A stretch of 32,000 nt of DNA, taken from positions 540,001 through 572,000 of the forward strand of contig NC_010814.1 in assembly GCF_000020385.1 (NCBI RefSeq), written 5' to 3'. The stretch comes from Trichlorobacter lovleyi SZ (GTDB lineage Bacteria; Desulfobacterota; Desulfuromonadia; Geobacterales; Pseudopelobacteraceae). The translations under genes were made by a program, and so were the position numbers. A model generated the notes under the pieces. It searched no databases. It was not told the origin of the DNA and was given only the letters and a program-made list of their open reading frames with translations. This document shows positions 10,038-23,818 of this stretch, one piece after another. Position 1 is the first letter of the stretch; every line of letters starts with the position of its first letter.

Positions 10038-12005
10038 CTACCGCAGTACCGCCTCGGCCATCACCTCTGCAATATCCTTCACCTGTACCTTTTCGGCCTT
10101 CAGGTCCTTGATGCCGTCATCCAGCATGGTCAGACAGTAGGGGCAGGCGGTACAGATTGTATCAGGCTGCTGCTCCAGTGCCTCGGCTGCCCGCACCAGG
10201 TTGATCCGGTCGCCGGTAAACTCTTCCATCCACATCCGGCCGCCACCGGCGCCGCAGCAGAAGCCGTCTTCACGGTTGCGGGGCATCTCCAGCGGCTCTG
10301 CACCGGTGGCAAGGGCCAATGCCTCGCGGGGCTCGTCGTAGATGTTGTTGTGGCGTCCCAGGTAGCAGGAATCATGGTAGACCAGCTTGCCCAGATCGGC
10401 CTGCTTGGGCAGCTTCAGGCGGCCATCCTGCACCAGATACAGCAGCAGCTGGCTGTGGTGGATCACCTCCAGTTCGATACCGTACTGCCTGTAGTCGTTT
10501 TTCAGGGTGGTCAGGCAGTGGGGGCACTGCACAATCACCTTCCTGATCCCCCGTTCCTTGAACAGGGCCACATTCTCCTTGGCCAGCTTGTCAAAGACAT
10601 ATTCATTGCCCAGTCTGCGCAGTGAGTCACCGCAGCATTTCTCATCCTTGCCCAGCATGCCCCAGGATACCCCGGCCTTGTCCAGCAACAGGGCGGTGGC
10701 CACGGTAATCTGCTTGGCCCGGGCATCAAAGGAACCGGCACAGCCGACATAGAAGAGGTACTCGGACTTGCCCGGTTCATAGGGGCGATCACCCAGCTGG
10801 CTGGCCCACTTGCCCCGCTCGGTGGGGGCGATGCCCCAGGGGTTGCTGCGTCCCTCCATGTTTTCAAACAGGTTCAGCAGCTCTTCCGGGAATTTTGACT
10901 CCATCTCAACCAGATGCCTGCGCAGCGGGATCAGCTTGGGCATCTGCTCAATAAAGACCGGGCAGGATTGCAGGCAGGCGCCGCAGGTGGTGCAGGCCCA
11001 GATCGCCTCTTCAGAGATGGAGGCGTCACCTTCGCCGATCAGGGGAGTGCCGGCTGGTTGCCCCTGTTTCAGCAGCGGACCGTTGGCCATCAGGTTGTGC
11101 TTGAGCTGGGCAATCACCCTGCGTGGATTCAGCGGCTTACCGGTCTGGTCTGCCGGACAGGCCATCTGGCAGCGGCCGCACTCGGTACAAGAGAAGGCGT
11201 CCAGCAGTTCTTTCCAGGTGTAGCCGTCAACCCGGTTAATCCCGAAGCTGTTGCCGGCGCTGAACTCTTCCCGCTCCGGCAGGGGCGGATGTTCGCGCCG
11301 CCGCAGAAACACGTTGGGGATGGCGGTGATGATATGGAAATGTTTGCTGAGCGGCAGCAGGTTCATGAACAGCAGCAGCACCAGGGCGTGGGTCCACCAG
11401 GAGAGGTCATGCACCAGCTTGCCGGCCCCGGAAGGCACATAGGGGGCAAACCAGCTGGAGATCGGCATGATGCTCTCTGCCAGCACCAGGGTGCTGCCCT
11501 GCATGCGGGAGATCTTGGCGGCGTTCACGCCGAAGTTTGCCAGCATCAGGGTGGCGATCAGAAACAGGATGAAGAACGCCTCAAAGGTCCGGGCCTCGGG
11601 ATAGGGAGGGGCCACCAGCCGTCTGATGGCAGCAGCTGTCACAGCCAGCAGGGTAATCAGTGAGACCACGTCAATCATCTGCATCAGCGGCATGAAGATG
11701 CCGTCCGGCAGCCTGGTGAAGTTGACGGCTGGAAACAGACCGTGCAGCAGGAATTCGGTGTTGGCAATCATCAGGACCAGGAAACACCAGAAGATGGCCA
11801 CATGGATCAGGCCGGACGGCTTGGCCAGCACCCGCTTCTGGGCAAAGGCGTAACTCAGGGTGTCGCCGATCCGCTGGCCGATGTTGTCCAGCCGTTCTTC
11901 AGGGCGTCCCAGGGCGGTCAGTGAGAGTCGTTTCCAGCAGCTCCAGACAAACAGGGCCGTGGCGGCAATAAAGAGTGGTGCGAAAATGGTCGGGGTTGGT
12001 GTCAT
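10038..12005 (-). CDS. Membrane-anchored FeS oxidoreductase (N-terminal multi-helix membrane domain + 2x[4Fe-4S] + two CCG/HdrD-GlpC-like domains), Etf-associated
   Basis: 655-aa ORF. About 5-6 hydrophobic helices in the first 230 aa. Ferredoxin motifs CTECGRCQMACP and CTTCGACLQSCP. CCG motifs KCCGDS and FCCGAGGG. The start overlaps the etfA stop. Confidence 0.85.
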   Translation of the reverse strand: MTPTPTIFAPLFIAATALFVWSCWKRLSLTALGRPEERLDNIGQRIGDTLSYAFAQKRVLAKPSGLIHVAIFWCFLVLMIANTEFLLHGLFPAVNFTRLPDGIFMPLMQMIDVVSLITLLAVTAAAIRRLVAPPYPEARTFEAFFILFLIATLMLANFGVNAAKISRMQGSTLVLAESIMPISSWFAPYVPSGAGKLVHDLSWWTHALVLLLFMNLLPLSKHFHIITAIPNVFLRRREHPPLPEREEFSAGNSFGINRVDGYTWKELLDAFSCTECGRCQMACPADQTGKPLNPRRVIAQLKHNLMANGPLLKQGQPAGTPLIGEGDASISEEAIWACTTCGACLQSCPVFIEQMPKLIPLRRHLVEMESKFPEELLNLFENMEGRSNPWGIAPTERGKWASQLGDRPYEPGKSEYLFYVGCAGSFDARAKQITVATALLLDKAGVSWGMLGKDEKCCGDSLRRLGNEYVFDKLAKENVALFKERGIRKVIVQCPHCLTTLKNDYRQYGIELEVIHHSQLLLYLVQDGRLKLPKQADLGKLVYHDSCYLGRHNNIYDEPREALALATGAEPLEMPRNREDGFCCGAGGGRMWMEEFTGDRINLVRAAEALEQQPDTICTACPYCLTMLDDGIKDLKAEKVQVKDIAEVMAEAVLR

Positions 12006-13333
12006 GGTTTTTTGCCTCGTGTTTTCAGCTCACGAATTTTACGCGTCAGGACGGGTACAATCTGGAACAGATCGCCGACAATGCCGTAATGGGCCACTTC
12101 AAAAATCGGTGCATCCTTGTCCCGGTTGATGGCGATGATCAGATCGGCATCCTGCATCCCCACCAGGTGCTGAATAGCACCTGAAATGCCGCAGGCAATA
12201 TAGATCTTGGGGCGCACGGTCTTGCCGGTCTGGCCGACTTGCCGGTCGTGGGGCATCCAGCCCGCATCCACTGCAGAACGGGAAGCCCCCACCACACCGT
12301 TCAGCTCTTTGGCCAGCTCTTCCAGCATGGCGAAGTTTTCCGGTCCCATCATGCCCCGCCCGCCGGAGATGATGAATTCGGCACCGCCGATATCCACCTT
12401 GTGCTTGCTGTCGCCGTCGCGGATAATTTCAAGCACCTTTGCCAGTACCTGATCTTCCGGGGTGGTAAAGGCATCCCGGATAATCTGGCCGGTGGCCTCC
12501 GGCAGCGGTTCGGGCATCTGCATCACATGGGGCCGGACCGTGGACATCTGGGGCCGGTATTTGTCGCACATGATGGTGGCCATGATATTGCCGCCAAAGG
12601 CGGGACGGGTCTGCATCAGGTTGCGTTTGTCGTCAATATCCAGGCCGGTACAGTCAGCGGTCAGGCCGGTGCCGACCCTGGTGGCCACTGCCCCGGCCAG
12701 GTCGCGTCCCATGCCGGTGGCCCCCATCAGGATCACCTCGGGTTTGTGCTGCTCAATCAGGTGGCACATCGCTTCCAGGTAAGACTGGGTGCGGTAATCG
12801 CCATAGAGCGGTGCATCCAGCAGATAGGCCTTTTCTGCGCCGTATTTGAAAGCTTCGTGGCAGAGCGGCTCAACCTTGTGGCCGATTACCACGGCACACA
12901 GTTCGACTCCCAGCTTGGCAGCCAGCTCCTTGCCCTTGCCCAACAGCTCCCAGGATACCTTGGCCGCCTCACCGTCGGTCTGTTCGATAAAGACCCAGAC
13001 CCCGCGGTATTGGGCCTGCATCCGGGCAATGGCAGCCGCCTCCGGATCCTCTTCTTCCGCTATGGGCGCGCTACCTGCTGCTGCCAGCTGTTCGAGGATC
13101 TTCTGCTCTTCAGGGGTGAAGAACATTTCAAGTGCCTGGGCCGGACAGACCTTGACGCACTTGAGGCAGCCGATACACTTTTCTGTATCAACTACCGGTT
13201 CACCGGCTTCATTCATACTGATGCAGTTGACCGGGCAGGAACTTTCACAGCGGGCGCCGCAGGCAATACACTTGCCTTCCAGCAGGCGGGCGCGTCCGCG
13301 GGGTTTTTTGATCTTTGGTGTGTTTTCACTCAT
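12002..13333 (-). CDS. etfA: Electron transfer flavoprotein alpha subunit with N-terminal 2x[4Fe-4S] ferredoxin domain
   Basis: 443-aa ORF. N-terminal motifs CIACGARCESSCP and CIGCLKCVKVCP. EtfA core with GGRG.. and the C-terminal FAD-binding signature PKIYIACGISGAIQHLVGM. Overlaps both neighbours by 4 nt. Confidence 0.9.
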   Translation of the reverse strand: MSENTPKIKKPRGRARLLEGKCIACGARCESSCPVNCISMNEAGEPVVDTEKCIGCLKCVKVCPAQALEMFFTPEEQKILEQLAAAGSAPIAEEEDPEAAAIARMQAQYRGVWVFIEQTDGEAAKVSWELLGKGKELAAKLGVELCAVVIGHKVEPLCHEAFKYGAEKAYLLDAPLYGDYRTQSYLEAMCHLIEQHKPEVILMGATGMGRDLAGAVATRVGTGLTADCTGLDIDDKRNLMQTRPAFGGNIMATIMCDKYRPQMSTVRPHVMQMPEPLPEATGQIIRDAFTTPEDQVLAKVLEIIRDGDSKHKVDIGGAEFIISGGRGMMGPENFAMLEELAKELNGVVGASRSAVDAGWMPHDRQVGQTGKTVRPKIYIACGISGAIQHLVGMQDADLIIAINRDKDAPIFEVAHYGIVGDLFQIVPVLTRKIRELKTRGKKP

Positions 13334-14145
13334 AGTGGTAGCAGATCCTTTTCCATCAGTTTACCCAGCAATAAATCAACCGTTCCCTCCGGATCGGCAT
13401 AGCCGTCCCCTACAATTTCACCCTTGTCGCGTTCCGGTGAGAAGATCTTGGATACCCAGGTGGGGGAGCCCTTCAGACCAATGGTCTGGGGATCGAGTTG
13501 CAATACTTCGTTATTCCAGACCTCAACCTCTGCGGTCGCAGCAGCCAGGCGCATCGGTACGGTGGGATAGCGGGGACGGTTCAGTTCCCGCACGACGGTC
13601 AGCATGGCCGGCAGGGGCGCCTGCACCCGCTCATGCCGGCCTTCCAGCTTGCGGCTGACCACCAGCTTCTTATTGGTCAGGTCCAGTTCTTCCACCTTGT
13701 CCACCAGGGTCAGTTGTTGGTAGCCCAGGCGGACGGCAATGCCCGGGCCGACCTGTGCGGTGTCGCCGTCAATGGTCTGCTTGCCGCAGATGACCAGCCC
13801 CACCGGTTCAACCTCCGCATTCAGCTTGGCTATGGCTGCTGCCAGCACCTTGCTGGTGGCCAGGGTGTCGGCCCCGCCAAAGACGCGGTCGGACAGCAGG
13901 ATGGCACGATCAACGCCGGCAGACAGCGCCTTGCGCAGGGTTGCCTCTGCGTTGGGTGGTCCCATGGAAAGCACTGCAACCCGGCAGCCGAACTGGTCTT
14001 TCAGTTGCAGCGCGGCTTCCATGGCGTGGGTATCGTAGGGGTTCATGATGAAGGGGATCCCTTCACGTATCAGGGTGTTGGTAACCGGGTCTATCTTGAC
14101 TTGGGTCGTATCAGGGACTTGTTTGATACAGGCTACTATCAACAT
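13330..14145 (-). CDS. etfB: Electron transfer flavoprotein beta subunit
   Basis: The start is moved to MLIVACIKQVPDTTQ (ATG 14145), which has AGAGGA 6 nt upstream. This is the typical EtfB N-terminus (VCIKQVPD). The track start at 14172 adds 9 unsupported residues. Confidence 0.9.
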   Translation of the reverse strand: MLIVACIKQVPDTTQVKIDPVTNTLIREGIPFIMNPYDTHAMEAALQLKDQFGCRVAVLSMGPPNAEATLRKALSAGVDRAILLSDRVFGGADTLATSKVLAAAIAKLNAEVEPVGLVICGKQTIDGDTAQVGPGIAVRLGYQQLTLVDKVEELDLTNKKLVVSRKLEGRHERVQAPLPAMLTVVRELNRPRYPTVPMRLAAATAEVEVWNNEVLQLDPQTIGLKGSPTWVSKIFSPERDKGEIVGDGYADPEGTVDLLLGKLMEKDLLPL

Positions 14146-14448
14146 GTGATTCCTCTTTGTGCCAAAAAACAAGGCATTTTGTGGTATGTGTCAAAATTTT
14201 AAACAATAGCAGATCTACATACTGCATCAAAAAAAATCATGCAAGTGCTAATAGCCTGAATTTACTGAGGCTGTAGCGCATGTAGTGAGAGCAAATGTGT
14301 TGATATTGCACCTTGTTATGTGTTGTAGCGACACACATTGGCTCGGTACAGGGGTGTGATTTATGTCGTCTTGAACTGCTGTTTTGGCTAATATGTCTGC
14401 TTTTTGTGCAATGATTGCTGCTGTATTGTATATTTAATATGCATATGA

Positions 14449-15876
<1,428 letters not shown>

Positions 15877-15974: not shown

Positions 15975-17198
15975 ATGGCATCTGTTGTTCAAAAATATGG
16001 CGGCTCCGCAGTTACCTCTCCGGAGCAGATCAGGAAGATCGCCGAGCGGATCATTCAGTCCTACAACGACCGGAATGATGTGGTGGTGGTCATCTCGGCA
16101 CGGGCAGGTGAAACCAACCGCCTGATTGAGATGGCCCAGGAGATGTGCCCGCGCCAGACCGGCAGTGAATATGATCTGCTGATCTCCGCCGGGGAGCAGG
16201 TCTCGATCGGTCTGCTGGCGCTCTGTATCAGCTCCCTGGGCTACAAGGTCAGGACCTATCTGGGCTGGCAGGTGCCGATCATCACCGATTCGCTGCATAC
16301 CAGGGCCTCCATAGAATATATTGATCCGGCAAAAATAAGGGCAGACCTCAACCATGGTGCCATTGTGCTGGTTGCCGGATTCCAGGGGATTGACCGCAGC
16401 GGCACCATTACCACCCTGGGGCGGGGCGGTGGTGACACCTCTGCCGTTGCCCTGGCCCACGCACTGGGAGCAGAGGTGTGTGAACTGTACTCGGATGTTG
16501 ACGGCATCTTTACTGCAGACCCGGCGATCTGCGATGATGCCCGCAAGATTGAGAAGATTTCCTACGATGAGATGCTGGAACTGGCCAGCCAGGGGGCTCG
16601 GGGCGTCCAGATCCGCGCCATTGAGTACGCAAAGAAGCACAACGTGACCATTCATGTCCGCTCGGCATTCACTGCTGAACGGGGCACCCTGGTCGTAAAG
16701 GAGCATATGCCTATGGAAGGTGTGGTTGTTACCGGGATTGTGGCAGACAAGAATGAGGCAAAGATCGCGGTACTCGGTGTGCCCGACAAGCCGGGCAGTG
16801 CCGCAAAGATCCTGACCGGTCTGGCTGATAAGGATATTTCAGTTGATATGATTGTCCAGAACGTGGGACAGGATGGTCTGGCTGATATCACCTTCTCCAT
16901 CTCAAAGACCGATCTTGAAAAGGCGCACCAGATCACCACCCAGATCGCCAAAGAGGTCAATGCGCGTGAGGTGCTTGCCGACCGCAACATCAGCAAGGTC
17001 TCGATTGTCGGTCTGGGGATGAAGAACCACGCCGGCGTGGCAGCCCGGATGTTTACCGCACTGGCCTACAACAACATTAATATTCAGATGATCTCCACCT
17101 CGGAAATCAAGGTCTCGGTGGCCATTGAAGAAAAGTACACCGAGCTTGCCGTGCGGGTGCTGCATGAGGCGTTCAAGGTGGATCAGTGCAGCGAGTGA
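15975..17198 (+). CDS. lysC: Aspartate kinase (monofunctional, two C-terminal ACT domains)
   Basis: Start at ATG 15975 (MASVVQKYGGSAV) with GAGG upstream. Kinase motifs KYGGS, VVVISA. ACT region from EGVVVTGIVADKNEAKIAVLGVPDKPG. An in-frame internal SD + ATG lies at 16698-16715 (see findings). Confidence 0.92.
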   Translation: MASVVQKYGGSAVTSPEQIRKIAERIIQSYNDRNDVVVVISARAGETNRLIEMAQEMCPRQTGSEYDLLISAGEQVSIGLLALCISSLGYKVRTYLGWQVPIITDSLHTRASIEYIDPAKIRADLNHGAIVLVAGFQGIDRSGTITTLGRGGGDTSAVALAHALGAEVCELYSDVDGIFTADPAICDDARKIEKISYDEMLELASQGARGVQIRAIEYAKKHNVTIHVRSAFTAERGTLVVKEHMPMEGVVVTGIVADKNEAKIAVLGVPDKPGSAAKILTGLADKDISVDMIVQNVGQDGLADITFSISKTDLEKAHQITTQIAKEVNAREVLADRNISKVSIVGLGMKNHAGVAARMFTALAYNNINIQMISTSEIKVSVAIEEKYTELAVRVLHEAFKVDQCSE

Positions 17199-17220
17199 TG
17201 GGGGCTGGTGCTTGAAACGG

Positions 17221-17430
17221 CAGCTGCTCACGCGGAGCCCGCGGAGAAAAACCAGCATAGTACGTTAAACCTGGAAAAAGCAGTTACCCACGAAGTGCGC
17301 GAAGAAACACCAAGAAAACCAGATTGTTTAGGCCAAGACGGCAACAACCTTTTGGGTGAATCATCTGTATTCTGTAACCTGTTGAATCTTCGTGAAACTT
17401 CGTGCCCTTGGTGGATATGAACGATTGTTT
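17221..17430. repeat. Structured, non-coding intergenic stretch with short GC-rich inverted/direct words (REP-like)
   Basis: Lies between convergent lysC and the rSAM gene. Words CACGCGGAGCCCGCGGAG, AGTACGT, CACGAAGTGCGCGAAG, CTTCGTGAAACTTCGTGCCCTTGGTG, with complementary pairs CACGAAGT/ACTTCGTG and CACCAAG/CTTGGTG. The ORFs here (17208-17420, 17228-17602) look spurious. Confidence 0.3.
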
Positions 17431-17489
17431 TTTGTGATCTCTGCATTCTTTGGCGGCTAAAAGCTTTTCTGGTAGTAGTGTTATTTCCG

Positions 17490-18794
17490 TCAGCAGGCTG
17501 GTTGCAAATCAGACATCCGTACCCCCAAATCCTGCAGTACCAACCGTTCCAGCGAGGCGTCCAGCATGGCACGATGGCAATCCACCGTGTCAATAGCACC
17601 ATTTTTTTGCAGCGTCAGTAGTCGGCAGCCGCCAAAACAGAGCGGCAGGTAGGCGCAGTCCAGGCATTCATCATTCTTCCAGATATCCAGCCGGTGTGAT
17701 GCGTGGTAATCACCCAACCCGTCGGCCAAGGTGCCGACGCAGAACTCCGGCCAGCCCATCAGGCTTGGGCATTTGTACAGGCTGCCGTCATAGTTGACCA
17801 CCAGGGTCTGCTCCAGATCGATCATGCAGATGCCCATCTGCAGCTTTTCCACCGTAAAACCTCGCCGCAGTATTTCTTCCCTCAGAAACAGGTTTGCCTC
17901 AATCAGCCACGGTTCGTTGGCAAGGACACAGGCTGCAGCATGGGGATCAAACAGGCCGGATTTGGGGTGGATCGGCGAAAATTGCACCGGTCCCAGTTGC
18001 GCCGGATCAAGACCGGCCTCCAGCAGCAGGTCCAGCATTTCCGGGAAACGGCGGTAATTGTCGCGGGTAAAGTTACCACCCGGTTTGATGGTGACCAGAT
18101 CGTACACCGCTGTGAGATTGTCGATGATGGTCTTGAAACTTCCCTTGCCTGATACAAACGGACGCTGCCGGTCGTGAGTCTCCGGCGGGCCGTCCAGGGT
18201 AATGACGGCACTCTTCAGGCCAAGGGGCAGCAGCTCTTCCACCACAGCCCGTGTCAGCAGGGTGGCGTTGGTAACCAGGCTGAATGAAAAGGTTCTACCT
18301 CGGTTTGCAGCCGCTGCCAGCAGCGGGGTGGCAATTCCCTTCAGTCGCGTGGTTGCCATCAGCGGCTCACCGCCGTAAAAACGTAGTTCAACATTACGCC
18401 CCTGATCAAGCTGCTCTCTGATGAGGTAATCAACCAGAATTCTGCCGGTTTCCTCACTCATCTCCTGGCCGTCCCGGAACGGCTCCTCAAAACAGTAGGG
18501 ACAAGCCAGGTTGCAGGCCAGGGTCAGTACCACCGTGGCGGAAAAGAGCGGGGTATGGGCATTGGTGTGATCAATAATGGCTGCCATTTTGCTACGCTCA
18601 GCCTCAAGGTCATCGGTCCAGAGCTGAAGCTGCTGCAGGGTGGCGCGTTCTTCAGGGGAAAGGGTGTTGTTTGCAATGGAGGTCAACAGCTGCTCAGGTA
18701 CCCTGACCACGGACCCCTTGCGGGTGGAGTAGAGGATGACGAAACCGGGCCGCTGCGGGTCGGGAAATGTGATGACATAGCGGGAAAACGGCAT
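17490..18794 (-). CDS. Radical SAM / SPASM-domain peptide-modifying enzyme (RiPP maturase candidate; possible N-terminal RRE-like domain)
   Basis: CX3CX2C motif LACNLACPYCFE about 100 aa from the N-terminus. C-terminal SPASM-type cysteines (YKCPSLMGWPEFCVG ... ECLDCAYLPLCFGGCRLL). The start is reassigned to ATG 18794 (MPFSRYVITF) with AGGAG at 18807-18803, 8 nt upstream. The track start at 18914 would overlap the upstream peptide gene and has no RBS. Confidence 0.85.
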   Translation of the reverse strand: MPFSRYVITFPDPQRPGFVILYSTRKGSVVRVPEQLLTSIANNTLSPEERATLQQLQLWTDDLEAERSKMAAIIDHTNAHTPLFSATVVLTLACNLACPYCFEEPFRDGQEMSEETGRILVDYLIREQLDQGRNVELRFYGGEPLMATTRLKGIATPLLAAAANRGRTFSFSLVTNATLLTRAVVEELLPLGLKSAVITLDGPPETHDRQRPFVSGKGSFKTIIDNLTAVYDLVTIKPGGNFTRDNYRRFPEMLDLLLEAGLDPAQLGPVQFSPIHPKSGLFDPHAAACVLANEPWLIEANLFLREEILRRGFTVEKLQMGICMIDLEQTLVVNYDGSLYKCPSLMGWPEFCVGTLADGLGDYHASHRLDIWKNDECLDCAYLPLCFGGCRLLTLQKNGAIDTVDCHRAMLDASLERLVLQDLGVRMSDLQPAC

Positions 18795-18813
18795 GGAATA
18801 GTCTCCTGAGAAT

Positions 18814-18842
18814 GTGAATGGGGAGCAAAACTCCCCATTCAC
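18814..18842 (-). promoter_or_regulatory. Intercistronic stem-loop between precursor ORF and maturase gene
   Basis: 12-bp perfect stem (plus strand GTGAATGGGGAG 18814-18825 / CTCCCCATTCAC 18831-18842) with a 5-nt loop. It starts 17 nt after the peptide stop and ends just before the maturase SD. Confidence 0.6.
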
Positions 18843-18859
18843 ATAACTTCCGTTGTTAC

Positions 18860-18949
18860 TTACTTGCGGGTACTGCTGGTACCGCCTGTGCAGCAGGATG
18901 CTACCATCTGACACTCTTCCATTCCCTGATTCAGCACTTCAATTGCCAT
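18860..18949 (-). CDS. 29-aa candidate RiPP precursor peptide MAIEVLNQGMEECQMVASCCTGGTSSTRK
   Basis: Hand translation of the minus strand: ATG at 18949-18947, GGAGA at 18960-18956 (6-nt spacer), TAA at 18862-18860. It is below the ORF-track size cutoff. The core-like C-terminus is rich in Cys/Gly/Thr/Ser, and the ORF lies directly upstream of, and co-oriented with, the rSAM/SPASM gene. Confidence 0.7.
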   Translation of the reverse strand: MAIEVLNQGMEECQMVASCCTGGTSSTRK

Positions 18950-19095
18950 AACACATCTCCATTGAATATGATTCCATCTGCTGACAGATGGATAAACAGG
19001 GTGTTTACCCTAGACGGACTGCAAATATTTTGCTAGTAAGAATTTGCTACAAAATTGCATCTGATGATTAGCCAACGAAATCGGGGAGCACACGC

Positions 19096-20961
19096 TTGAA
19101 CCGTATCTGCAGCAATAAAGTATTGTTGATTCTGCCGATACTGGTATGCCTTACGGCCATGCCGCTCTTTGCTGCCGATGATGCCCTGGAGGATCTGGGT
19201 ATTATTGAGGCCCAGGCTGAATCGGTTGTCTCTGCCTCTCGCAGCCCCCGTCCCGCCTCCCGCATTGCAGAAAACATCACCGTCATCACTGCTGACGACA
19301 TTGAACGCCTGAATGCCCATACCCTGGCAGAGGTGCTGCAGACCGTGCCGGGCATCCAGCTTGATTTTTTGCGCACCCCCGGCACATTCAGCTTCTTTAA
19401 TGTCCAAGGTGCCTTGAATACCACGGTGCTGGTGCTGGTGGATGGTATCCGCCAGAATGATTTTGACCAGAACATGGCTATTGTTGGCCTGATTCCGGTG
19501 CAGCAGATTGAGCGGATCGAGATCATCAAAGGGGCAGCCTCAGCTGCCTGGGGACCGGCCCTGGGCGGGGTGATCAATATCATCACCAAATCCCCTGATG
19601 CTGAGCGCAAGTTCAGCGGCATGGTGTCCGGCTCCACTGGCTCTCAGTTCACCGCAGATTCCCGCGCAGAAGTCAGCGGCACCCTGGATCGTTTCGGCTA
19701 TTATCTGACTGTTGCCAACCTGCGTTCCGATGGCCTGACCCCCAATACCGGCACCAACCAGAACAACCTGTTTACCAAACTCTCCTACCAGTTACCCCAC
19801 AATGGCAGCCTTACCTTTGGCCTGTCCTACCTGACTGCCAGTCCGGGGCTGGATGAAGGGGAAACAGTGAGCTGGGGCTTTGTCCATGACAACAACCAGT
19901 ATCGCCGCACCAATGCCTACCTGAAGCTTAACCAGCCCCTGACTGACCGGTTAACCCTGGAACTGGACAGCTTTCTGACCAACCGTGATGACCATACCAA
20001 GTTTGGCGGCTTGGATGGCTCAGGTAATCTGACCTTTTTTAATGACTATGTGGTGCGGGACACCAACCAGGGGATCAATGCCCGTCTGCGCTGGGGCGAC
20101 TACCAGAAGAGCCTGCTGCTGGGGCTTGATTATAGCCATGCCTGGGCCATCAACAGGGATGCGTTAAGCAGTGATCCGCCAGTCTATGACCGGAGCTGGG
20201 ACCGCTGGGGCATCTATGCAAATGGTGCCTATACGGTGGGACAACTGACCATTCTGCCCGGTGCCCGTTATGACATTACCGGCACCTCTGGCGATGTCAC
20301 CAGCCTGACCCTGGGGGCCACCTATCAGCTGGCTGAACATACGTTGCTGCGGGCCTATGCTGCCCAGGGCTATACCCTGCCCACACCCCGTGCCGATAAC
20401 AAGCTGCAAAAGATCAAGACCATTCAGGCCGGGATCGAGAGTGAGGCGCTGCCTTTTCTCTGGCTGAAGGGGACCTTTTTCTTTAATGCCCTGCGTGACA
20501 GCCAATCTATCGGTACCGTAACCACCACCAACCAGCAGCGCCAGGGGATTGAGCTGGAGGCCCGCACCGCGCCGCTGTACGGTCTTTCCCTGACCAGTGG
20601 CTATACCTACCTGGATGCCTGGGACAGTGATACTGGCCAGCGTCTGCACACCAACTATAATCAGGCGGTTCCGCCCCACACCGTGAAACTGGCCTTGAAC
20701 TACGATAACCGTGAGCTGGGGCTGCGCGGTACTGTAACCGGTAACTATGTCTGGTGGAACAGGGATGAAAGCACTGCTGCCCGTGACACCGGCATGATCT
20801 GGGATCTGCATCTGAACTGGCGGTTGAAGTCATTTTATAAACTGACACCGGAGTTGTTCTTCTCTGCCCACAACCTGTTCAACGGTGTACAGACTACGGA
20901 TACCGAGTTATACACCAATGCCAAGCGCTGGTTTGAAGGCGGCCTGCGGGTGAAGTTCTGA
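19096..20961 (+). CDS. TonB-dependent outer-membrane receptor (small, about 620 aa)
   Basis: TTG start with GGGGAG 7 nt upstream. Signal peptide ...CLTAMPLFA/ADD. Plug motifs NITVITADDIERLNAHTLAEVLQTVPGIQL and IERIEIIKGAASAAWG. Beta-barrel-like alternating sequence ending in a terminal aromatic residue (GGLRVKF). Confidence 0.9.
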   Translation: MNRICSNKVLLILPILVCLTAMPLFAADDALEDLGIIEAQAESVVSASRSPRPASRIAENITVITADDIERLNAHTLAEVLQTVPGIQLDFLRTPGTFSFFNVQGALNTTVLVLVDGIRQNDFDQNMAIVGLIPVQQIERIEIIKGAASAAWGPALGGVINIITKSPDAERKFSGMVSGSTGSQFTADSRAEVSGTLDRFGYYLTVANLRSDGLTPNTGTNQNNLFTKLSYQLPHNGSLTFGLSYLTASPGLDEGETVSWGFVHDNNQYRRTNAYLKLNQPLTDRLTLELDSFLTNRDDHTKFGGLDGSGNLTFFNDYVVRDTNQGINARLRWGDYQKSLLLGLDYSHAWAINRDALSSDPPVYDRSWDRWGIYANGAYTVGQLTILPGARYDITGTSGDVTSLTLGATYQLAEHTLLRAYAAQGYTLPTPRADNKLQKIKTIQAGIESEALPFLWLKGTFFFNALRDSQSIGTVTTTNQQRQGIELEARTAPLYGLSLTSGYTYLDAWDSDTGQRLHTNYNQAVPPHTVKLALNYDNRELGLRGTVTGNYVWWNRDESTAARDTGMIWDLHLNWRLKSFYKLTPELFFSAHNLFNGVQTTDTELYTNAKRWFEGGLRVKF

Positions 20962-21818
20962 TGCGGCGCCTGGTCCTGTGCATAGTCGCCCTGGCGTTGT
21001 TGGTTCCCTCATTGGCCCGGGCCTATGATCTGCTGGTACTGCAGAGCAAGCGCAATCCGGCGTATGACGAGATGCTGAAAGGGTTTAGCGAGAGACGGAA
21101 CGTTTCCCGGCGGGTGATTGTGCTGTCCGACTATGCCGAGGTGGATGTGGCCCGGATTGCACGGGAGGACCGTCCGACATTGATCCTGGCTGTGGGAGAT
21201 ACGGCCCTGGCAGCGGCCCGCAAGGTGCGCACCATCCCGGTGGTGGCGCTGATGTCCCTTGATCTGCGCCGGTTGCAGGCCGTTCAGCCGAACCTGACCG
21301 GCATTGATATGTTTGTGGCACCGGAAAATTACTGCAATCTGCTGCGTCAGATGAAGGCGCGCCGGGTGGGAATCCTCTATAATCCTGCCAGAAACGGCTG
21401 GTACCTGCGCCAGGCGCGGCAGGCCGCCGAAAAGGCGGGTATCACGCTGGTGGCGCGCGAGGTGACCGATCCCCGCGATACCCTGACCAAGCTGGCGTCG
21501 CTGGCCGGCAAGGTGGATGCGCTCTGGATGCTGCCGGATGTCACGGCGGTAACCAGGGAAACGGCAGAGGCCTATTTCCATTTCAGCCAGCAGCAGGCGG
21601 TGCCGGTGGTGTCGTTTGCCGCCAACTATCTGGGGCTGGGAGCGGCGGCGGTGTTTGAGATTGATCGCGCAGCCCTGGGACGCCAGGCCAATGAGATGGT
21701 GACATCACTGCTTGACGGAGACGCTGTTGACAGTACCTCGTTACGCTTTCCCCGCGGCGTTGTACTCAAGACCAATGCCGGCATCCTGAGACGTCTGGGG
21801 GCATCCCTTGAAGAATGA
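20961..21818 (+). CDS. Periplasmic substrate-binding protein, COG2984 / ABC_sub_bind-like (no cognate permease or ATPase nearby)
   Basis: 285-aa ORF with signal peptide [21 protein letters not shown]. Periplasmic-binding-fold pattern ([18 protein letters not shown]..., [12 protein letters not shown]..., VDALWMLPD..., VPVVSF). The start overlaps the receptor stop (TGATG) and the stop overlaps the kinase start (ATGA). Confidence 0.7.
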
Positions 21819-23818
21819 ATCGTACAAAACAGCCGCAGCCGTGCAGATGCCACCGCTCCGGCGTTGCAATGACTGCTTTTAAGGAGCTGACCGTGCTACG
21901 ATGTGCAAAATGGTCAAACATCCGTACCAGGTTTCAATGCAAGCTCTTCATCATCTTTACCCTGCTGACCTTTCTGATCGTCTCCACACTCAGTACCCTC
22001 TTTATTATCCATGAGATCAAAAAATCAAAAAAATCTGCGGCGGCACATCTCCGGCTGCAGGTAGAATATCTGGCTGAATCGATCCGGCTGCCGCTGTTTG
22101 CAGAAAATGCCGAGCTGCTGCGGCAGATGGCCGAGCAGGCCGCCCGGTTGCCGGAGGTCCGTGCGGTGGTGATCAGGGCCCCGGACGGCAGGGTCCTGGC
22201 AGCGGTCTATCCTGCGTCAGCGACCGGTAGCCGCGAGGAAGTGCTCAGTCAAAGCATCGAGGTCTGCAGCAATCCCCAGGCAGGTTCACCGATTGCGTCT
22301 CTGACCGATGGTCTTGATACGCCGTCGTTACTGGGCAGTGTGCGGATCGAACGGGGGACGGCCGATATGGACCGGGCTGTCCGCAAGCTGATTGCCTGGT
22401 CCGTGGCCCTGGCTCTGCTCTTCTGGCTGGCGGTTTCTTTACTGAGCCATCTGGTGCTGCGGCAGGTGACCCGTTCGTTCAATAATCTGGTGAGCGGTAT
22501 TGCCGCCCTGCAGGATGGCGACTACGGCACTCTGATCGAGGTTGATTCCGATGATGAGCCGGGCCGTGCTGCGGCAGCAGTCAACGGCCTGGCTCGTTCG
22601 CTGCAGCAGCGCTCCGAGGAAAACAGGCAGGCCAGGGAAGAGCTGCTCCAGGCCAAGTCCGAAGCAGAGGCTGCCAATACCGCCAAATCTGAATTTCTGG
22701 CCAATATGAGCCATGAGATTCGTACCCCCATGAGCGGGCTGATCGGCAATGCCCAGCTGCTGCGCTTGACCCAGCTGAATGCTGAGCAGACGGGGTATCT
22801 TACCAACATTGAGACTGATGCGAAAAACCTGATGTCGTTAATTAACGACGTGCTGGATATCTCCAAGATTGAGGCCGGAAAACTTGAACTTGAGAGTGCG
22901 CCGTTCAGTCTGCGCAGTTGCGTTGCTCAACTGCTCAAGTCCCAGGAAGCGCGGATAGCCGCCAAGGCGATTGTGCTAACGCATGAAATCGCTGCCGATC
23001 TCCCTGACAGCCTGTTCGGCGATCAGTTGCGCCTCAAACAGATCCTGTACAACCTGGTGGGGAACGCCATCAAGTTTACCGCCAAAGGTGAGATACGGGT
23101 CAAGGTTGAGTTGCTGGAGCGCCATGATGACAAGGCCCGCTTCTGCTTCAGTGTTACTGACACCGGCATCGGTATCAGGCCGGAGGCGCGTGAGAAGATC
23201 TTCGCACCGTTTATACAGGCTGATGCCTCGGTGACCCGCCGTTTCGGCGGCACCGGCCTGGGGTTGTCGATCTGCAGCCGGCTTGTCCAGCAGATGGGAG
23301 GGGGGATAACTGTTGAGAGCGAGGAGGGGAAAGGCAGCACCTTCTCCGTCACCCTGCCGTTTCTGATCAACTCGCAGCCGCTGCCTCAGCAGGAAACGCT
23401 GCCGCAGGACCGAAAACTGATGTGGGAAGGGGCTCCATTACGGATCCTGCTGGCGGATGACAGCGAAACCAACTGCACCATGTTGAGTATTCTGCTCTCC
23501 CGCTTTGGCCATAGTGTCACCCCGGCAGGTGACGGGGCTGAAGTGTTGCAGCAATGGCAGAAGGGTGGTTTTGATGTTGTCCTGATGGATATTCAGATGC
23601 CGGTTATGGACGGCATGGAGACAACCCGGGTTATCAGGGAGCATGAAAGGAAAAACGGCGGGCATCTTCCCATTATCGCCCTGACGGCCCATGCGCTGAA
23701 AGAGACGCGGGAGCATATGTTAAGTGCCGGTTTTGACGGCTATGTTTCAAAGCCGATTGATCTGAAACTGCTGCATGATGAAATGCGGCAGGTGATTGTG
23801 CAGGATGGGAAGATGTAG
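21815..23818 (+). CDS. Hybrid sensor histidine kinase (2 TM + periplasmic segment, HAMP-like linker, HisKA, HATPase_c, receiver)
   Basis: TM helices [22 protein letters not shown] and [20 protein letters not shown]-box [42 protein letters not shown]. Receiver motifs [28 protein letters not shown]. The true start could instead be ATG 21866 (MTAFKEL). Confidence 0.88.

Follow-up and report, generated by a model that had tools for sequence, protein, structure and literature searches.

Linkage of a geopeptide precursor and its radical SAM maturase to TonB-dependent receptor, periplasmic binding protein and sensor kinase genes in Trichlorobacter lovleyi SZ and other bacteria

A 29-codon gene of Trichlorobacter lovleyi SZ encodes a precursor of the "geopeptide" family, and the gene that follows it on the minus strand encodes its dedicated radical S-adenosylmethionine (SAM)/SPASM maturase. 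Both lie in positions 540,001 to 572,000 of contig NC_010814.1 (assembly GCF_000020385.1); this whole stretch of 32,000 nucleotides is called the window here, and coordinates are counted from its first letter. We regard the identity of the pair as close to certain, because the two proteins pass the curated cut-offs of their respective families (TIGR04229 and TIGR04280) and the exact sequences are so named in RefSeq. The pair is already known and annotated in public databases. What is added here is its near-constant linkage to genes for a TonB-dependent outer-membrane receptor, a PF04392 periplasmic binding protein and a hybrid sensor histidine kinase. The system consists of five linked genes, not two, and ranges far beyond Geobacter. 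The comparison turns an annotation devoid of function into concrete experimental questions: which chemistry takes place at a Cys-Cys core, and what the module of receptor, binding protein and kinase does.

The Precursor and Maturase Genes

Features of the pair in the window:
18860-18949, minus strand: geopeptide precursor gene, 29 aa plus stop, encoding MAIEVLNQGMEECQMVASCCTGGTSSTRK
18956-18960, minus strand: Shine-Dalgarno sequence GGAGA of the precursor gene, 6-nt spacer to the ATG, read from the sequence
17490-18794, minus strand: gene for the geopeptide radical SAM/SPASM maturase, 434 aa (TIGR04280, Pfam Radical_SAM, exact RefSeq match)
18803-18807, minus strand: Shine-Dalgarno sequence AGGAG of the maturase gene, 8-nt spacer to the ATG at 18794, read from the sequence
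18492-18515, minus strand: radical SAM cluster motif C94-X3-C98-X2-C101, unchanged across the 20 homologues aligned
17577-17828, minus strand: SPASM region C323-X13-G-X4-C342, C377-X2-C380-X5-C386-X3-C390, C406, from TIGR04085 and cysteine conservation
18540-18794, minus strand: N-terminal domain of the maturase, residues 1 to ~85, a putative leader-recognition element in AlphaFold models

The precursor carries a leader motif (EVLNQG), an invariant cysteine pair (Cys19-Cys20) and a 9-residue tail with Arg at +8. It scores 39.2 bits against the NCBIfam model TIGR04229 "geopeptide" (E = 3.6e-10, model positions 1-22 of 22; curated cut-off 30 bits), and the identical 29-aa sequence stands in RefSeq as WP_083768557.1, named "geopeptide", from Trichlorobacter lovleyi. 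An open reading frame (ORF) of 29 codons is unremarkable by itself, since 76 ORFs of at least 20 aa overlap the 5-kb stretch of the peptide and maturase genes. The gene is nevertheless real, given the family match, its presence in public gene calls and RefSeq, and a Cys-Cys peptide ORF found at the same place in 59 loci (see below). GGAGG-like sites occur at the equivalent position upstream of the peptide gene in related loci. In close relatives, codon-position analysis did not clearly reveal purifying selection on the peptide gene, which has too few codons and changes too quickly for this; the frame and motif kept across 59 loci are a stronger argument. The peptide stop ends at 18860 and a 65-nt spacer leads to the enzyme ATG at 18794 on the same strand, so that the peptide gene is immediately upstream of the TIGR04280 enzyme.

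The initial annotation of this DNA, made from its letters alone, had placed the small ORF and its GGAGA site correctly, as it had the AGGAG-N8-ATG start of a 434-aa protein with a CX3CX2C site (C94/C98/C101) and C-terminal SPASM cysteines. Its assignment to the "geopeptide" and "geopeptide radical SAM maturase" families proved exact. It was mistaken in calling the peptide gene hidden, as the gene had already been annotated publicly. Its suspicion of the longer maturase start listed at GTG-18914 was well founded: homologues are 424-438 aa long, and M1, S4 and Y6, counted from the 18794 start, do not vary in an alignment of 20 sequences, which favors the ATG at 18794 as the true start and supports the view that the longer one is an ORF-listing artefact. 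Public gene calls also give a 434-aa protein.

Residues 1-425 of the maturase align to model positions 1-427 of 428 of TIGR04280 "geopeptide radical SAM maturase" with 699.8 bits (curated cut-off 400 bits), and the identical 434-aa sequence is WP_012468658.1/ACD94302.1 in RefSeq, named "geopeptide radical SAM maturase", from Trichlorobacter lovleyi. With both cut-offs passed and the RefSeq names in agreement, the window locus is a member of the geopeptide family and shows no difference from it. The family is a bioinformatic definition only, of model type "hypoth_equivalog". Literature searches found no paper on its chemistry or function, in agreement with the initial annotation; the Geobacter radical SAM papers found concern other systems, namely SbtM selenopeptides and mycofactocin.

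Outside its own family the enzyme has only distant relatives. Pfam recognizes the radical SAM core only, and the SPASM model TIGR04085 is matched at 52.4 bits (cut-off 27); the seven cysteines of the SPASM motif are all present and do not vary among the 20 homologues. The next-best NCBIfam family, CefB, reaches just 138 bits. Nearly all of the next-best families act on Cys-rich peptides, and the characterized ones (PapB, SCIFF maturase and QhpD) form thioethers. The maturase stays below the bit cut-offs of PapB (133 vs 340), SCIFF (106 vs 425), QhpD (103 vs 453) and RumMC (56 vs 720); by these scores it is related to the PapB, SCIFF/CteB, RumMC and QhpD thioether-synthase families but a member of none. 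The initial annotation had also considered that the protein might belong to a SPASM family that does not act on peptides made by the ribosome and altered after translation (RiPPs). It does not fall there: the anaerobic sulfatase maturase (anSME) model TIGR03942 is matched over the radical SAM core only, at 65.8 bits for a cut-off of 349.

Eight cysteines beyond the radical SAM motif are conserved in the 20-homologue alignment (C289, C323, C342, C377, C380, C386, C390 and C406), a number that, judging by sequence, suffices to ligate two auxiliary clusters fully. Among solved structures, the thioether synthase CteB is nearest in sequence (5wgg, E = 1.6e-26; also 5why). The AlphaFold model of the maturase (pLDDT 81, pTM 0.79) likewise matches CteB over its full length (E = 4e-19, TM-score 0.63-0.65), with further fold matches to TigE, leader-bound ChlB, SuiB with SuiA, sulfatase maturase, SkfB and PqqE.

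It is plausible that the N-terminal domain is a RiPP recognition element, as suggested by structural models. The initial annotation had proposed a PqqD-like element in this region. The part of that proposal that stands is the fold: the domain is modeled as three strands followed by three helices, the expected topology (pLDDT 82-91; isolated domain pLDDT 85), and when modeled by itself it has its best fold matches in proteins of the expected type, the leader-bound lasso-peptide recognition element TbiB1 and the CteB N-terminus. These matches are weak and not significant (E = 0.08-0.7, TM-score ~0.36), and Pfam PqqD had no match on the maturase.

Conservation of the Precursor

A scan of one genome per species yielded about 60 loci with orthologous maturases (38-91% identity), from Geobacterales/Desulfuromonadales, Nitrospirota/Thermodesulfovibrionales, Desulfobacterales, Syntrophales and a few metagenome-assembled genomes (MAGs) labeled Pseudomonadota. 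In 59 loci a small ORF with an invariant Cys-Cys is directly upstream of the maturase gene on the same strand, and a profile built on 37 of the peptides picks out a single ORF of this kind in each locus. The only loci without it are those of two distant enzymes (~30% identity) and the MAG locus L025. Conservation of the small ORF, which the initial annotation had left to be checked, thus extends to its frame, its Cys-Cys motif and its adjacency to the enzyme, over several phyla.

Across the 59 peptides, a hydrophobic-hydrophobic-x-x-Gly motif is found 8-12 residues ahead of the two cysteines. The tail that follows them has 7-13 residues (median 9), with small residues at +2 and +3, Pro at +6 in 20/59 and Arg at +8 in 22/53. 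The Cys-Cys pair followed by this short tail is the sole invariant handle on the chemistry of the system.

The family model does not reach all of these peptides. Ten divergent maturases from the same lineages pass TIGR04280 at 459-632 bits, while their precursors fail TIGR04229 at 0-14 bits; TIGR04229 therefore covers only Geobacter-type precursors. Automatic annotation will miss most of the others, as seen from the TIGR04229 failures among the peptides of loci L013-L063.

Two variants of the precursor were observed. In L025 (5404-5598), a Geobacter MAG, a precursor with a normal VLDEG leader has Tyr-Cys in place of Cys-Cys (…KSPYPKYCMVPIFRLYIN) through a single G-to-A difference; this may be a naturally occurring form with one cysteine, or a mistake in the assembly. 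In several Nitrospirota precursors the acidic VL-D/E-x-G leader is replaced by a long Lys/Ala/Thr-rich N-terminal extension (AKKK-type repeats, up to ~60 aa), and the Cys-Cys core and tail are kept; one of them weakly matches histone H1-like DNA-binding protein models. The extended precursors are located at:
L027, 5656-5946
L030, 3957-4073
L036, 5709-5948
L038, 5752-5952
L040, 5664-5798
L057, 3311-3550

A Conserved Five-Gene Module

Three genes of the window lie divergent from the pair:
19096-20961, plus strand: TonB-dependent outer-membrane receptor, 621 aa (Pfam Plug and TonB_dep_Rec barrel), divergent from the peptide gene across a 146-nt spacer
20961-21818, plus strand: PF04392 periplasmic binding protein, 285 aa, with signal peptide (Pfam ABC_sub_bind, 61.9 bits)
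21815-23818, plus strand: hybrid sensor histidine kinase, 667 aa (Pfam domains and sequence)

The initial annotation had described a minimal cassette of peptide and enzyme, and so missed these conserved genes. Their adjacency was counted in the 32 loci with about 6 kb on both sides of the maturase. The receptor gene adjoins the maturase gene in all 32 (55/59 overall) and is the strictest partner of the pair, the PF04392 gene is adjacent in 31/32 and the kinase gene in 29/32; all three are present in 28. Clustering of all flank ORFs returned exactly three further recurring families, which are the TonB-dependent receptor, the PF04392 protein and the sensor histidine kinase. The small recurrent clusters that it also returned are ATP synthase genes, a molybdopterin-binding-domain gene, or antisense shadows of conserved genes.

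The module occurs in four gene orders and in at least three phyla. In the window, as in the Geobacter type, kinase, binding protein and receptor are divergent from peptide and maturase. In Nitrospirota the order is receptor, peptide, maturase, binding protein and kinase, all co-directional. A third order (Desulfobacterales and others) has binding protein and kinase divergent from receptor, peptide and maturase, and in the fourth the receptor is downstream of the maturase. Because the linkage survives rearrangement across phyla, it points to functional coupling, and we hold with good confidence that peptide, maturase, receptor, PF04392 protein and kinase form one functional unit. Per genome record the locus is single-copy and chromosomal, and it is flanked by housekeeping genes; those near it in the window encode aspartate kinase, glutamate dehydrogenase, electron-transfer flavoprotein (ETF) and UvrC.

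The kinase is laid out as a transmembrane helix, a periplasmic segment of ~125 aa, a second transmembrane helix, HAMP, HisKA, HATPase and receiver. Its best NCBIfam similarities are BarA, TorS and LuxQ, all under cut-off, and the kinase of one relative has an sCache_4 sensor domain. In the window the PF04392 gene has no ABC permease or ATPase gene with it. The nearest solved structures of the PF04392 protein are 3lkv and 6hni; a homologue search with the window protein returned only orthologues, of at least 60% identity.

Some variation in the composition of the module was also observed. L020 (722-2680) and L024 keep receptor and binding protein and have no member of the kinase cluster; the upstream ORF of L020 is aconitase. 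L026 (127-3065) is without a binding protein; upstream of its receptor gene are those of a sigma-54 regulator and of a protein with an HD domain (HD_5). Some Geobacteraceae have two PF04392 genes, one by upstream kinases and one by a receptor downstream of the maturase:
L015, 3059-6131
L017, 7396-9019
L018, 7406-10264

The Nitrospirota module continues after the kinase with a sigma-54-dependent response regulator (REC-AAA-HTH_8), which is followed by a near-consensus sigma-54 promoter (e.g., TGGCATTCAGCTTGCA, L040 11458) directly before a small LuxR/GerE-type gene. This arrangement suggests that the regulator and the LuxR-type gene are the output of the kinase cascade in these lineages. It is found at:
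L040, 9955-11923: sigma-54 regulator, promoter and LuxR/GerE-type gene; also in L027, L031, L036, L038 and L047

Hairpins around the Precursor Gene

The precursor message is bracketed by two hairpins:
18812-18844, minus strand: stem-loop between the peptide and maturase genes, 15 bp including one G-U, loop UUU, no T-run
18973-18992, minus strand: 5′ untranslated-region hairpin UCCAUCUG-UCAG-CAGAUGGA, 8 bp, by folding, ~13 nt upstream of the peptide Shine-Dalgarno sequence

The 12-bp core of the intergenic hairpin starts 17 nt past the peptide stop, where the initial annotation had seen it; the full stem is longer, 15 bp. It folds at -27.1 kcal/mol (z = -4.8), and 0/200 shuffles fold as well. 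Compared with the closest relative, L001, it has a compensatory A-U to G-C change. A GC-rich hairpin 3′ of the peptide stop has a stem of at least 7 bp in 54/58 loci and of at least 9 bp in 46/58, at a median offset of 16.5 nt from the stop and with unrelated sequences. Between 19 (strict counting) and 30 (loose counting) of the 58 loci have a terminator-like T-run after it. For the 5′ hairpin, comparable CATCC...GGATG structures are found in L001-L007, L012, L022 and L047, and a perfect stem of at least 5 bp is present in 55% of 53 loci versus 20% of shuffles.

The intergenic stem-loop is probably a transcript-stabilizing or attenuating structure that sets the ratio of peptide to enzyme. We infer that the two hairpins stabilize a short, peptide-only message and limit read-through into the maturase gene. 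Precursor excess by means of such hairpins is usual in RiPP loci.

The 146-nt spacer between the receptor and peptide genes contains a palindrome, AGGGT-AAAC-ACCCT (18998-19011, minus strand), and a block TTCTTACTAGCAAAAT; both are shared with L001, the rest of the spacer having diverged, and could serve as operator. A sigma-54 promoter before the peptide gene was rejected, the nearest candidate having AG instead of GG at -24 and a spacing unlike that in L001. On the minus strand of 17100-19200, scans for sigma-70 promoter and terminator consensus sequences had no hits, and the 290 nt downstream of the maturase gene show no more folding than their shuffled versions (z = -0.05). Neither Rfam families nor tRNAs turned up in scans over the whole window.

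A Proposed Mechanism and its Weak Points

We propose the following chain of events, which taken as a whole has an even chance of being right. The 5′ hairpin and the strong 3′ hairpin would bracket the peptide mRNA, and the peptide message would outlast or outnumber that of the enzyme. The N-terminal domain of the maturase would grip the leader via its hydrophobic-hydrophobic-x-x-Gly strand (EVLNQG here). The radical SAM cluster would then generate a 5′-deoxyadenosyl radical, leading to H-atom abstraction in the short core around Cys-Cys, and, aided by the two auxiliary clusters, a Cys sulfur would be joined to a carbon of a nearby residue in a thioether ring, as in CteB, PapB and QhpD. The pair would act as one unit with the receptor, the PF04392 protein and the hybrid kinase: the modified peptide would exit by an unlinked route, the receptor would return the product across the outer membrane, and the binding protein would capture it in the periplasm and report to the kinase, following the logic of LuxP-LuxQ, TorT-TorS and methanobactin operons. 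The product could serve as a cell-cell signal or as a thiophilic-metal carrier.

Several points weigh against this chain. The assignment of the N-terminal domain as a recognition element is statistically weak (E ~0.1, TM-score 0.36). No acceptor residue is conserved, Asp or Glu being present in just 8/59 tails, and some precursors are without an acidic residue or Thr near the two cysteines. All eight auxiliary cysteines are conserved, which resembles the fully ligated sulfatase maturase as much as CteB. A few loci are without kinase or binding protein. Gene linkage means coupling without direction, and the three neighbors could control the pair rather than receive its product. In none of the 59 loci is there a linked exporter or leader peptidase, a difficulty if the product is secreted; this is the main weakness, and because of it an intracellular role with external regulation has to be weighed below. 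Every step of the chain is a computational reading of sequence, of structural models or of analogy.

Chemistry at the Cys-Cys Core

A thioether is the likeliest product because the nearest characterized relatives of the maturase (CteB, PapB and QhpD) make thioethers, and sequence comparison gives this chemistry roughly equal prospects of holding and of failing. The sactipeptide/ranthipeptide type of chemistry that the initial annotation had put forward would be of this kind. A ranthipeptide-type link from Cys to Asp, Glu or Thr cannot be general, because no acceptor is conserved and some precursors have none of these residues near the cysteines. A residue-independent link from S to C-alpha, or chemistry within the two cysteines, fits better than a ranthipeptide-type link to an acidic side chain. 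The CteB/SCIFF, PapB (freyrasin) and QhpD systems share with the geopeptide pair the three domains of the enzyme (an N-terminal domain, for recognition and in the geopeptide maturase putatively so, the radical SAM core, and SPASM with two auxiliary clusters) and a Cys-containing ribosomal peptide. The geopeptide differs from them in having one Cys-Cys dyad, not several spaced cysteines, and no conserved Asp, Glu, Asn or Thr acceptor. To our knowledge, none of these systems has a link to a TonB-dependent receptor.

One possibility is that the cysteines are instead oxidized or rearranged, to a formylglycine-like aldehyde, a thiooxazole-type heterocycle as with Geobacter SbtM, or a Cys-to-Cys link. 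The Cys-Cys dyad as sole invariant element and the lack of a conserved acceptor speak for such chemistry, and both the eight conserved auxiliary-cluster cysteines and the strong fold matches to sulfatase maturase structures point the same way. Like the geopeptide maturase, anSME has the radical SAM/SPASM fold, and it acts on Cys with two fully Cys-ligated auxiliary clusters; it differs in having no N-terminal recognition domain and a folded sulfatase as substrate, not a dedicated 29-aa peptide, and its model remains far under cut-off on the window enzyme, as given above. A precedent is the SbtM system of Geobacter and Desulfobacteria, in which a radical SAM/SPASM maturase is paired with a short Cys/selenocysteine (Sec) peptide and 4 Da are lost at Cys/Sec of a Geobacter peptide (PMC9204691). 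SbtM belongs to another enzyme family, which is not among the 25 best NCBIfam matches of the geopeptide maturase, and acts on a GGUG-motif peptide to give a thio- or seleno-oxazole. In addition, the closest characterized relatives by score are thioether formers, and a sactionine-type link from S to C-alpha needs no particular acceptor, so that a variable tail is compatible with thioethers. We consider non-thioether chemistry rather unlikely and keep the thioether as the preferred product. Modification of two neighboring cysteines in peptides that share no acceptor residue may be new chemistry.

Fate of the Product

Linkage to the receptor, the binding protein and the kinase suggests that the product is recognized by the first two and signaled through the third. 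Extracytoplasmic uptake and sensing, which we argue by analogy, comes a little short of an even chance. A conserved ABC permease or ATPase beside the binding protein was not found in the flank ORF clusters of the orthologous loci, which suggests a binding protein that works for the kinase, in the manner of LuxP-LuxQ (autoinducer-2) and TorT-TorS. In those systems too a periplasmic binding protein gene is beside that of a hybrid kinase with a small periplasmic segment, a likeness known here from adjacency, signal peptide, transmembrane topology and the absence of a permease. They differ from the geopeptide locus in that the binding protein is not PF04392, and there is no TonB-dependent receptor and no gene-encoded peptide ligand.

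Methanobactin operons provide the other comparison. They comprise the precursor MbnA, the TonB-dependent transporter MbnT, the periplasmic binding protein MbnE and regulators. As in the geopeptide locus, a ribosomal precursor with essential Cys lies beside a TonB-dependent transporter, a permease-less binding protein and a regulator. The modifying enzyme is MbnBC, not a radical SAM protein, and the operons have a MATE exporter and sigma/anti-sigma regulators where the geopeptide locus has a hybrid histidine kinase and no exporter. Enzymes of the MbnB/MbnC type were not found around the precursor, where only the radical SAM enzyme, receptor, binding protein and kinase families are conserved.

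In its full form, the proposal is of a five-part circuit, widespread in anaerobic Geobacterales, Nitrospirota and Desulfobacterota, with a released Cys-Cys peptide modified by the radical SAM enzyme, re-import by a dedicated TonB-dependent receptor and a PF04392/hybrid kinase readout, and would amount to a new TonB-dependent peptide signal or metallophore. We offer this as speculative and somewhat doubtful. Literature searches found no TonB-dependent peptide signal or radical-SAM-made metallophore described in Gram-negative anaerobes.

A metallophore would be a sub-case of uptake and sensing, competing with a pure signal: the Cys-Cys peptide would bind a soft metal outside the cell and be re-imported by the receptor, received by the binding protein and reported to the kinase, which would tune expression in the manner of methanobactin. 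The strictness with which the receptor is linked, in 32/32 loci, would be in keeping with it, as would the two adjacent cysteines being the sole invariant residues of the peptide and the methanobactin-like layout of a receptor and binding protein without permease. Sensing of an imported siderophore by a two-component system is known from PfeS/PfeR. Cysteines held in thioethers, however, lose most of their metal affinity. The locus contains no MbnB/MbnC-type or other chelate-forming enzyme and no linked exporter, and the receptor falls short of every curated receptor model for siderophores, haem and B12. Neither a metal-responsive regulator nor a recognizable metal box was seen, though these were not looked for in depth. 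On balance a metallophore is unlikely.

Equally unlikely is a product that stays inside the cell, for example as a redox cofactor or as a modified peptide whose target is intracellular (cf. PQQ and mycofactocin), with receptor, binding protein and kinase sensing an unrelated ligand and controlling expression. In favor of such a role, the locus has neither a linked exporter nor a linked protease; two SPASM enzymes, PqqE, which is among the fold matches of the maturase, and MftC, make cofactors; and the divergent promoters share a 146-nt spacer with conserved palindromes. Yet no conserved partner oxidoreductases or tailoring enzymes lie nearby, unlike in PQQ and mycofactocin clusters, and the tail of the peptide varies greatly, as cofactor precursors seldom do. 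In Nitrospirota, moreover, the five genes are co-directional, and the sigma-54 promoter downstream of the regulator stands before the LuxR-type gene, not the peptide gene.

Lastly, a stand-alone minimal antimicrobial cassette (a sactipeptide or ranthipeptide bacteriocin) with unrelated neighbors would have the two genes and intervening hairpin typical of a bacteriocin locus, but it is very improbable given that the pair keeps its three neighbors (receptor, binding protein and kinase) in four gene orders and in several phyla, and given the absence of an immunity gene, exporter or protease from the locus, and a single-copy chromosomal setting among housekeeping genes.

Other Features of the Window

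Further along the minus strand, 10038-14172 is an operon for an EtfB-like protein, an EtfA-like protein with an N-terminal ferredoxin domain, and a 655-aa protein resembling the iron-sulfur subunits of heterodisulfide reductase and fumarate reductase. Its make-up suggests an ETF system, electron-bifurcating or membrane-linked, and it appears unrelated to the geopeptide. Two ORFs overlap on opposite strands at 14479-15876 (plus) and 14434-15291 (minus). The minus-strand ORF, which has no family match, is taken as a shadow because public calls place glutamate dehydrogenase (ELFV_dehydrog) on the other strand.

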